Under the pieces are notes generated by a model, which was not told the origin of the DNA, searched no databases, and saw only the letters and a program-made list of their open reading frames with translations. This document shows, one piece after another, positions 56,859 through 60,520 of a stretch of DNA of 64,000 bases. The first letter of the stretch is position 1, and every line of letters starts with the position of its first letter. The position numbers and the translations under genes were made by a program. The DNA comes from Octopus vulgaris. Lineage: Eukaryota. The stretch is taken from NCBI GenBank assembly GCA_951406725.2, contig OX597822.1:40548001-40612000 (forward strand), in the 5' to 3' direction.

Positions 56859-58116
56859 CAACACACACACACACACACACACATACACACTCGTACGTAC
56901 GTACACCTATTGCATACATGGTTTTTGTACGCATACATGTTCGCGCGCGCGTGTGTGTTTCCAACTACCAAATCCACTTATACGGTTTTGGTCGACCCAA
57001 GGCTCTAGTAGAAGACCCTTACCAGAAGTACTACACGGTCAGATTGAACCAGGAACCAAGAGTTTGGGTAGCAAACTTTATACGACACAGCCACGCCTGC
57101 CAACAAAACGCTACATTATTCTAGAGATCTCATCTCCACTTCCGTACTACAATGCTTCAAGCGAACTACAATGCTCTTCTATAAGCACATCACATAATGC
57201 AGTCATAGGTACACTATGCCTGAACAAAGTATGGTGTACACGCAGTTGGACTGCATTTTACCATGGGTCTACTGGATCAGGACAAGCCTGGGGCTAAACA
57301 GCAATAGCAACCAGTTTCCTTATCATAACATAGCAAGGTATATACACATATCACAAGGTATATGAAGAGAGCCCCTACAGAGCTACTTGAAATGCTAGAG
57401 ACACCAGTTAAATTACACCTTGTAAAAATGAAGGACACATTGGAAAATGTGGTTCTGAGTATACAGAAATACAAGGTGGTCATGGTTGGATCATGTTTGA
57501 TCATTGTGCTTTGAGCTGGGCTGACCTGGGCTGAAATACAGCAACAACAACAACGCGTAATAGTCTCCACCTATCAACCTATACGCTGATGACAGTGCGT
57601 GTCTCTATACACCCATCCATGACTACCTCTGGGGAGTTTAAAATGTCTGCGGAAATTAAAACGTTTTCTGAAATGTCATTGCGATGGCATCAGGTGACAG
57701 TTACTGTATTACGTCATAGACCACCAGGAGTGACGATAGTGATGATGATGATGATGATGATCATCATCATCATCATCATCGTCGTCGTCGTCGTCGTTAT
57801 GTATGTGATGATGATGGTGGTTGTAGCGGTGGTAATGATGATGATGATGATTGTGGTGGTGGTGGTGGTGGTGATGATGAGGATGATGAGAAGGAGGATA
57901 AAGATGATGTTGGTGGTGGTGGTGGTGGTGGTAGTAGAGATGACGTTTAGGGCAATAATCATAATGAGGATATTGCATTTAACAACATCCCTACGACGGT
58001 CACGAATAGGAAAAGACGGGGATGATCACAGACGGATCTTTGATCTCTAATCATAGGTCTGACCAATCAGGGTTGGCCTGCGGCTAAACAGAAACAACAT
58101 CATCCACAAGAATAAA

Positions 58117-58458
58117 ACAGATACCTCCATTCTAACAACATTATTGTACCCCACCACAGTCACTAATACACTATCCCAATTACACTTAGCTCTACTACTA
58201 TCACGCCGATTCAAATCCGCTATTGTAGGCGTAGGCGTAGCTTTGCGGTAATATATATATATATAGTAGAAGATATTACGCAGTGGACTGAACCCGGAAC
58301 CATGTGTTTGGGAAACAAACATCTTACCGCAAAGCTACGCCTACGCCTACAATAGCGGATTTGAATCGGCGTGATAGTAGTAGAGCTAAGTGTAATGGGG
58401 ATAGTGTATTAGTGACTGTAGTGGGGTACAATAATGTTGCTAGAATGGAGGCATCTGT
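58117..58458. repeat. ~135-bp inverted duplication with 72-bp spacer
   Basis: 58117-58251 vs 58324-58458, few mismatches; the spacer is a SINE family 1 head fragment. Confidence 0.9.
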
Positions 58459-58662
58459 GGTTTATAACACATATATACAGATATTGGCCTGCTCGCTTAG
58501 CCAGCGGGGTGGCGTCATTTGAAGGCTAAAACAATGCGAAGCGCATTGTGACCAGCGATGTGTAACAACATCTGATATAAATAATATATATGCATATATA
58601 CATACGTCTACGTACATACTTACATCTATACATACGTCTACGTACATACTTACATCTATACG

Positions 58663-58735
<73 letters not shown>

Positions 58736-58739
58736 ATAT

Positions 58740-59335
58740 GTGGGCACAGGAGTCACGAAACGTGTACAAGAAAAAATACGAAGTACGAGTACATAGAATA
58801 TGAACTATTTTTTCGAACAACGAAAGACACAAATGGAAAACAAAGACAAACAACATAAAGAACGACCCTTCATCCGTTGTTAGCTGTTTGTCTAATCTTG
58901 TATTTCGAACATTTAAAAACAATATATACTTTCGATAAAACAGTTGCTCCCGCAAAGCAAATTAAGTCAAACTTGGGATTTTGTGGAGGATCAAAATTGG
59001 TAATACAACAGGACAGTGAAAACAAACAGGAAGAGCTGCTTAGACTAAGCAAAGTTGTGGTGGCGAACGCGAAAATTAAGCTTGGACAGGAGAAAGACAA
59101 GAACATGTCTTCCTTGTTCCAACCACAACGGAGATAAAGAAACACAAGTTAGGAGAAGAAAGAAAGATGGCCGATGGTCACGTGGGAGCCACGTGAGCAA
59201 GTGAGGAGGAGGGAAGGAGACAGAGTGACAGTAATAGGTTAGAATAGTGGGAGAAGAGGAGGTAAAAGAATGCGAGAGAGAAAGAAAGAAAAACGAAAGA
59301 GTAAAAAGATCGCATAGAGTGCGCATCAGAATTAT
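58740..59335 (-). mobile_element. Family P diverged subfamily copy; permuted hammerhead motif at 58864-58928
   Basis: Minus strand TATAT-A-TTGTT-(6)-TGTTC-GAA-ATACA-(17)-AACAA-CGGATGA-A-GGGTC. Confidence 0.65.
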
Positions 59336-59426
59336 TAAGATAAAACTTACTTGGAAGAGGATGCGTGGCGTTCAATCATATACTAATATAAATAATATAT
59401 ATAAATGCATATATACATACGTATAT

Positions 59427-59509
<83 letters not shown>

Positions 59510-59656: not shown

Positions 59657-60078
59657 GAATATATGGGTACAGGACATCACCTGTACCCATATATTCTGAC
59701 ATCACATATTTGCAACGGTGCAAATAACATGAAATAAGTAAAAAAAAAAGGAGAAGAAAAAATGGAAAACAGGATAAATATACACAGAGAAACGACCCTT
59801 CATCATTTGTCGGCCGTCTATCTACTCCTCATTTCGAGCATTCAACGACAATATGAGTCTTCAAAGACAACTGCTCCCATAAATTCTAAAATAAAATTTA
59901 GGATTTATGGAGGGTCAAAGTTGGTAACAAAAACATGACAATGGAGACATACAAGAAAACCGAACAAAAACAAACATGGAGGGTCGTTAGACCAGAACGA
60001 GAGGAAAATAGTGAACGCTGGGAGAAATATTTTCTTTGAAAAGAGAAAAGATAGAATAGAGAGAGAAAAAAAAACACG
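59657..60078 (-). mobile_element. Family P copy; permuted hammerhead motif at 59794-59857; terminal hairpin
   Basis: Minus strand CTCAT-A-TTGTCG-ttgaa-TGCTC-GAA-ATGAG-(15)-CGACAA-ATGATGA-A-GGGTC; 17-bp hairpin at 59657-59696. Confidence 0.75.
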
Positions 60079-60093
60079 TCATACGTATATATA

Positions 60094-60268
60094 GGCGCAG
60101 GAGTGGCTATACGTTAAGAAGCTTGCTTTCCGATCACATAGTTCCGGTTTCAGTCCTACTACGTGGCACCTTGGGCATGTGTCTTCTACTATAGCCTTGG
60201 GCCAACCAAAGCCTTGTGAGTGGATTTGTTTGTCGGAAACTGAAAGCCCGTCGTATGTGTGTGTTTGT

Positions 60269-60328
<60 letters not shown>

Positions 60329-60520
60329 GTATGTGTCTGTATTCGTTCCTCCCCATCATCGCTTGACAACCGATGCTGGTGAGCTAACGTCCCGTAACTT
60401 AGCGGTTCGGCAAAAGAGACACGGTACTAGGCTTACAAAGAATAAGTCCTGGGGTCGATTTGTTCGACTGAAGGCGCTGCTCCAGCATGACTGCAGTCAA
60501 ATGACTGTAGCAAGTGAAAG
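60094..60520 (+). mobile_element. SINE family 1 copy
   Basis: Colinear match to the family. Confidence 0.85.

Follow-up and report, generated by a model that had tools for sequence, protein, structure and literature searches.

A decayed hammerhead-like motif with a predicted split catalytic core in a non-coding repeat of Octopus vulgaris

The motif copies and their repeat unit

The stretch of DNA that was analysed (referred to as the window) comprises 64,000 nt of the Octopus vulgaris genome (assembly GCA_951406725.2, contig OX597822.1, positions 40,548,001 to 40,612,000) and contains four related copies of a hammerhead-like motif, near 46.97, 53.2, 58.87 and 59.8 kb (Table 1). The motif sits on the minus strand of a non-coding repeat of ~800 nt (units of ~750–840 nt), which has no long ORF and in which the GIY-YIG plus reverse transcriptase (RT) ORF of an autonomous Naiad Penelope-like element (PLE) is missing. 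Each unit bears one motif, and the repeat occurs mostly as one or two units, with head-to-tail tandem periods of 836, 839, 831, 768 and 752 nt and a triple at 832 nt. Units start and finish in TA-rich sequence and are inserted inside (TA)n; their 3′ ends fall mostly within the TA-rich tail, their 5′ ends are variable, and both fold-back inversions and partial tandems occur. Inserts longer than one unit would be consistent with a circular or multimeric RNA template, like that of retrozymes. The fold-back inversions in L184, L207, L101, L249 and L102/L103 have their junctions either at helix I or at the CTTCGAAG palindrome that precedes GAAA, a pattern suggesting that the cDNA primes itself close to the cut site.

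The insertion that holds the copy near 58.87 kb consists of ~50 nt from the TA-rich tail of a preceding unit and then one full non-coding unit from near 59379, whose last part is the 3′ end with a tail that merges into (TA)n/(CA)n. Its ORFs are short or microsatellite only, with at most 93 aa within the unique part. Elsewhere in the window, a ~350 bp inverted repeat (84% self-complementary) surrounds a short (TA)n at 58112–58465, and a very common repeat, present in many of the fetched loci and presumably SINE-like, lies at ~60095–60520.

Table 1. Coordinates of the motif copies in the window and of the elements of the copy near 58.87 kb
Feature	Position	Strand	Remarks
Decayed motif copy, whole	58863–58993	minus	subfamily B
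Subfamily B insertion, ends approximate	58578–59430	minus	from extent of homology
Helix IV 5′ strand	58987–58993	minus	UGAUCCU (majority UGACCCU)
Hairpin V	58950–58986	minus	abuts helix IV and helix II without linker
Helix II 5′ strand	58945–58949	minus	GAGCA, source of G10.1, upstream of the predicted cut; 25/25 Watson–Crick, 5 variants
Helix IIIb 5′ strand	58937–58943	minus	in the B majority followed by AUC bulge and G·A/A·G pairs, kink-turn-like
Block S	58917–58928	minus	helix III 3′ strand 58928–58924; A17 58923; helix I 3′ strand 58922–58917
Predicted cut	between 58923 and 58922	minus	
Block G	58899–58911	minus	helix II 3′ strand UGUUC; GAAA 58906–58903; helix III 5′ strand
Helix IIIb 3′ strand	58884–58890	minus	
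Helix I 5′ strand and core	58870–58882	minus	core CGGAUGA (U4>G; majority CUGAUGA)
Helix IV 3′ strand	58863–58869	minus	AGGGUCG, immediately after A9; helix II strand of the earlier note
Subfamily A copy	59793–59917	minus	helices I–V pair; core C3>A
Subfamily A copy	46962–47086	minus	intact core; G10.1>A; two changes in helix IV
Subfamily A copy	53169–53227	minus	follows (TA)n; 5′ truncation close to the predicted cut; damaged core

An earlier note had proposed, from the letters of the window, that this copy retains a permuted hammerhead fold. The elements that it named were found again in the copy: helix I (UUGUU/AACAA, pairing 58922–58918 with 58881–58877), the GAAA and the AUA triplet with its A17, the U4>G change in the core at 58876–58870, and helix III (UAUAU/AUACA, mismatched at a single A·C). 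The UUGUCG/CGACAA helix I and the AUGAUGA core (C3>A) of the neighbouring copy at 59793–59917 were also as described. The note's expectation, a subfamily consensus in which CUGAUGA is present and helix III pairs throughout, was borne out by the subfamily B majority (36 copies), although that helix reads CGUAU/AUACG rather than the suggested UGUAU/AUACA. The core is intact in 28 of these 36 copies, and six retain the core together with all five tested helices. The copy near 58.87 kb was rightly suspected of decay: U4>G breaks its set of core bases, its isolated fold is no better than that of shuffles (z +0.78), and both the outer U–A pair of helix III and the A·C mismatch lie at CpG positions (majority counts over 39 copies). 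On these sequence changes, the copy is probably inactive.

Covariation across twelve subfamilies

DNA searches of the 2.8-Gb genome with two types of window returned 3,503 and 4,661 candidates, the best 40 of each being scored, and homology and pattern searches yielded 12 subfamily majorities with motif identities of 42–93% to one another. These were built from 48 (A), 36 (B), 8 (C), 19 (D), 7 (E), 6 (G1b), 7 (G2), 3 (G3), 2 (G4, identical), 36 (H), 15 (I) and 1 (Ib) copies, omitting those with less than 84% identity to the seed or less than 80% length and dropping seed G1, a single truncated copy; G2 copies are up to 98% identical to their majority. The core pattern matched 3,910 times, versus 17 for the reversed control, and further core patterns matched 979 versus 0, 3,327 versus 2 and 492 versus 0 times. 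Moreover, block S, which one search pattern did not contain, was found upstream as predicted in L095, L116 and L122, and block C, absent from another pattern, lay downstream in 30/30 fetched loci, either intact or with one change. Twenty diverged pattern matches that were fetched comprised eight of H or I, one Naiad end, four that look like chance in another repeat, and seven that were left unparsed. More GAAA…CUGAnGA repeats, also unparsed and some truncated just 5′ of GAAA, were noticed in L228 and L253–L256, and possibly represent additional subfamilies.

From 5′ to 3′, the motif starts with the helix IV 5′ strand, hairpin V, the 5′ strands of helices II and IIIb, the helix III 3′ strand and H17, continues with the 3′ strands of helices I and II, GAAA and the helix III 5′ strand, and ends with the IIIb 3′ strand, the helix I 5′ strand, CUGAnGA and the helix IV 3′ strand. 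Covariation was tested on the 12 majorities by permutation across families, with identical variants collapsed and each helix placed at the best pairing within its majority. Helix I proved entirely Watson–Crick (40/40 in 8 variants, cross-family mean 22.5; P 2.5e-5), helix III entirely paired (32/32 in 8 variants; P 5e-5) and hairpin V nearly so (29/32; P 6e-4), with the proviso that the subfamilies are related, so that variants are not independent events and these P values overstate independence. Helix IV was paired at 20/20, yet its covariation was not significant (P 0.15). CUGAnGA, CGAAA and the A–U pair at 15.1–16.1 are kept in 12/12 majorities, of which C, D, E and G had been found with core-containing patterns. 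The cut triplets follow the NUH rule (AUA, GUU, GUC, GUA and AUC), and H17 is never G.

At the family level, the motif thus combines the core bases of a hammerhead, NUH with A15.1–U16.1, covarying helices I, II and III, and R10.1–Y11.1. We consider it very likely that the fold is real and has been under selection, in line with the earlier note's claim of selection in several subfamilies; the covariation is stronger than it had reported, but its helix II was wrong, and helices IIIb and IV and hairpin V had been missed. Chance pairing among decayed repeats, which could be read from unremarkable single-sequence folds (z +0.78 to −1.68) and from the lack of a hammerhead match in Rfam, is refuted at the family level by the permutation tests and pattern controls, and neither folding nor Rfam tools can model crossing helices. 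Rfam gave no hammerhead match on the copy near 58.87 kb, on an intact G2 copy or on a canonical-order motif of a Neptune-like PLE (see below), and this blank says little because the canonical-order motif was missed as well; over the whole window, microsatellite-driven miRNA matches were among the best 150 of the 464 matches.

The partner of helix II and known hammerheads

The earlier note's weak, G·U-rich helix II used the wrong partner, as the strand preceding GAAA (58911–58907) pairs with GAGCA at 58949–58945, beyond the segment that it had considered. This upstream helix II is Watson–Crick at 25/25 positions in five variants (GAGCA/UGCUC, GAAGG/CCUUC, GGCUG/CAGCC, GUGCC/GGCAC and GCACC/GGUGC; P 1/120, the minimum possible), and carries G10.1–C11.1 in 12/12 majorities. 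The corrected version of the permuted fold is therefore one with a split catalytic strand rather than a plain SGC permutation: helix II would usually follow A9 directly or after 1–2 nt, and here helices IV and V intervene. The helix IV strand comes directly after A9 in 12/12 majorities, and helices IV, V and II adjoin without a gap in 10/12.

A plain type-SGC hammerhead, with the strand after CUGAUGA-A as helix II, is very unlikely. SGC ribozymes are proven (Eckert et al. 2023, PMC10085705), and in A, B, C, D and G the strand could form 4 bp, two of them G·U. However, the post-core strand is Watson–Crick at only 8/24 positions, no better than cross-family shuffles (P 0.92), and offers 0–1 pair in H, I and Ib; in family H, AAGAAAA follows the core and a post-core helix II cannot form. 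The corresponding duplex energies are +1.1 to −3.9 kcal/mol, versus −5.7 to −10.1 kcal/mol for the upstream pairing, and helix IV already occupies the post-core strand. A strand-swap switch between the upstream strand and a U-rich tract after the core was also considered, and was dropped once helices IV and V had been recognised in families H and I.

Between helices III and IIIb lies a signature that we take to be a kink-turn. It is strict in B and H only, has a 2-nt bulge in D, E and G4, and was not found in the C, G2, G3, I or Ib majorities. A canonical-order minimal hammerhead (CUGAUGA-A-GGCUG…CAGCC-GAAA-CGU) was observed in another repeat of the window at ~10000–10050 (+); its helix II is the same as that of family H, and it had nine matches (fetched loci L008, L038, L049, L206, L221, L232 and L289).

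Eckert et al. define blocks S, G and C and their six permutations (PMC10085705), and in the parts of that paper that bear on this, insertions of more than 1–2 nt between CUGAnGA and its stems are given as unknown, block C is assumed to be unbreakable, and the search is reported to have found no SGC example in the genomes of known organisms. The octopus motif shares with its type-SGC hammerheads (HRIMA-1 and variants) the S-G-C order, all core bases, the crossing helices and a short linker between helices I and II. In contrast, block C is split here at A9|G10.1, with helix II taking its 5′ strand from upstream and IV and V intervening, and the helix that joins the free sides of stems I and II in type SGC is absent, those strands forming IIIb and IV instead. 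For core insertions, Perreault et al. likewise describe 1–2 nt only in the relevant part of their paper (PMC3088659).

Minimal hammerheads of PLEs, as described by Cervera and De la Peña (2014, PMC4209133), have one conserved extra base at 9/10.1. Like the octopus motif, they lie near the 3′ end of PLE-type insertions, have G10.1–C11.1 and carry an insertion after A9, which is one base there and two helices here. They are, however, of type I and canonical order, with a minimal helix III, and are thought to act as dimers, whereas helix III is full-length in the octopus motif. Metazoan non-LTR retrozymes are also non-coding, head-to-tail arranged and provided with one hammerhead per unit, and co-occur with autonomous PLEs as is the case here (PMC7229834; bioRxiv 10.64898/2026.07.22.740005, in the parts relevant here); their units are ~170–400 nt with type I hammerheads (PMC7229834), versus octopus units of 752–839 nt with a split SGC order and mostly one or two units. 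In a full-text literature search, with most subscription journals outside its scope, no record described an animal retroelement with a split-core or SGC hammerhead. Judged by its sequence, the octopus motif would work like that of a hammerhead-bearing retrozyme, while on the features tested it falls outside both type SGC and the described retrozymes.

Cleavage and mobilisation by Penelope-like elements

Breakpoints of 5′-truncated copies were compared with the predicted cut. Among 83 core-anchored copies of the G subfamilies, 34 break within ~95 nt upstream of the core, 18 of these at 0..+11 after the predicted cut, none at −12..−1 and three in the next 12 nt 3′. This gives the 0..+11 window a rate ratio of 9.9 (nominal P 8e-10), where the window had been chosen after an earlier breakpoint set that shares many copies, and 5/13 newly added breaks fall inside it. 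Three G2 ‘breaks’ at −84, which look like alignment artefacts, were kept (a conservative choice), and the earlier E/G set included L206, which is not of the family. The peak lies at +5..+8 rather than at 0, and TA/CA/TG dinucleotides are fewer in the 0..+11 window than before the predicted cut in the G copies. We read this peak as run-off at the 5′ end left by the cut, followed by trimming to TA or CA microhomology. No such peak was seen in the B/A set of 91 copies, the family of the copy near 58.87 kb (7 breaks at 0..+11, 8 at +12..+23 and 4 at −12..−1).

In three RNA runs, a locus with both B and H gathered 1,908, 2,024 and 1,420 reads with no pile-up of ends at positions 1699 or 2581 of L015, where ~6% of each raw run was covered, both strands were equal in depth and the organism may differ from that of the genome. 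G2 was represented by 1, 3 and 0 reads and reads were present for B and H, data of a kind that cannot show circles. An index of sequencing runs named no RNA run for family H.

These results bear on an unlikely alternative, namely that the conserved fold has little or no cutting activity by itself, serving as an RT-binding or packaging signal or depending on a dimer or chaperone, with the breakpoint peak reflecting pausing. Such a reading would suit the offset of the peak, its absence in B and the lack of RNA ends at the site, and also the weak in vitro cleavage of PLE minimal hammerheads (PMC4209133) and the two-helix core insertion, for which the parts of the hammerhead literature examined hold no precedent. 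It sits poorly with the retention of all catalytic bases and of the NUH rule while the stems turn over. Moreover, the peak is 5′ of helix II, and a polymerase travelling 3′ to 5′ would by then have removed the partner strands. On this indirect evidence, we regard self-cleavage in the source elements as likely.

As to the element that moves the units, Naiad insertions are characterised by (TA)n targeting, 5′ truncation, partial tandems and inverted copies (Craig et al. 2021, PMC8557442), and the octopus repeat has the same insertion features. Naiad PLEs carry an EN-RT ORF, whereas the octopus repeat does not, and the likeness rests on the fold and the insertion features. The passages of that paper on ribozymes report that Naiads lack hammerheads, call cephalopod Naiads long inactive, and flag the Naiad_Ovul 3′ end only as ‘HHR_half_core’. 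By eye, however, the ends of Naiad_Obim and Naiad_Ovul have the same wiring as the octopus motif, in the order hairpin V, GACAC, IIIb, AUGGU-A-CUGCCC, GUGUC-GAAA-CCAU, IIIb and GGGCAG-CUGAUGA, with helices I, II and III all Watson–Crick. In the Naiad_Esco end, helices I, III and IIIb keep this order and helix II is ambiguous, and no such motif was seen by eye at the ends of Naiad_Omin and Naiad_Adux (both listed as incomplete) or Naiad-1_Skow; the comparison covers 6 of the 54 published consensi. A decayed Obim-type Naiad 3′ end with the split motif is also present in this genome (L261:3070–4160, +). The shared 3′ fold, as read by eye, makes a Naiad a plausible mobiliser of the repeat units. 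The long inactivity ascribed to cephalopod Naiads speaks against this, given that G2 copies are still up to 98% identical to their majority.

Several other PLEs were encountered. A very young Neptune-like PLE (L061–L090; best 150 of 16,146 candidates at 94–100% identity) has open frames of up to 1,214 aa, and in Pfam its protein matched RVT_1 (E 1e-8) and, weakly, GIY-YIG (E 0.004). It ends in (TA)n and bears a canonical-order motif with a single A at 9/10.1, of which the window holds three 3′ ends, at ~45845–45875 (+), 48350–48378 (+) and 50878–50908 (−). The core of this motif is CUGU(U/G)GA rather than CUGAnGA, the A6 change being fixed in the young family. An abundant element (L123–L152; 15,810 candidates), whose endonuclease we take to be Hydra-like, has CGAAA ~45 nt before CUGAAGA in its 3′ region, possibly another scrambled motif. 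The C-terminus of a third, diverged PLE (L344:1–960, +) is 28% identical to the Neptune-like protein and has a B tandem in its TA tail; Pfam returned nothing for the Hydra-like or the third PLE protein. None of the three was retained as a physical carrier, the motif unit being a separate neighbour in the loci that were read throughout (L013, L038, L115 and L344) and the Neptune and Hydra loci having 3′ ends of their own. Searches of 442 motif-bearing loci with two PLE proteins, neither of them from a Naiad, found no motif-bearing unit joined to an ORF. A 237-aa frame with the look of a zinc knuckle and a restriction-like endonuclease, presumably of HERO type, lies in L056:530–1240 (+) and is not joined to the motif.

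A further, improbable alternative keeps the same ribozyme and differs in that helix IV stacks under G12·A9, or in that the Neptune-like element rather than a Naiad mobilises the units. The placement of helix IV directly after A9 in every majority speaks for the first, and the youth and (TA)n end of the Neptune-like element for the second; against them, G10.1–C11.1 is on the upstream helix, and the Neptune end has a canonical-order motif where the Naiad end has a split one.

Taken together, we favour, with a probability of roughly 0.7, the reading that the locus holds a decayed hammerhead-like copy with blocks in S-G-C order, in which helix II is drawn from upstream and helices IV and V are predicted to split the core, and whose intact sources self-cleave and are mobilised by a PLE. 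Five helices would surround the core, and the putative kink-turn that separates III from IIIb would allow the chain to turn back on itself. Intact source copies would cut after the NUH triplet and yield unit-length RNA, which would pass through a circular or multimeric intermediate before the reverse transcriptase of a PLE, probably a Naiad, reinserts it as a DNA copy at (TA)n sites. We incline, by a small degree, to the more specific proposal that this topology lies outside the six permutations of 2023, with the catalytic strand opened at A9|G10.1 within a five-helix junction with a kink-turn, that it is active as a monomer, and that it represents the missing ribozyme of Naiads and of their non-coding circular-RNA passengers.

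Such an architecture would contradict the stated premise that hammerhead block C is uninterruptible, and would suggest an engineerable insertion point in the hammerhead core. An animal genome would thereby contain thousands of non-circularly permuted hammerheads. For the Naiads, it offers a testable answer to their reported lack of hammerheads, as canonical-order descriptors would miss a split motif, and replication by cutting and circularisation would explain the tandem insertions of more than one unit.
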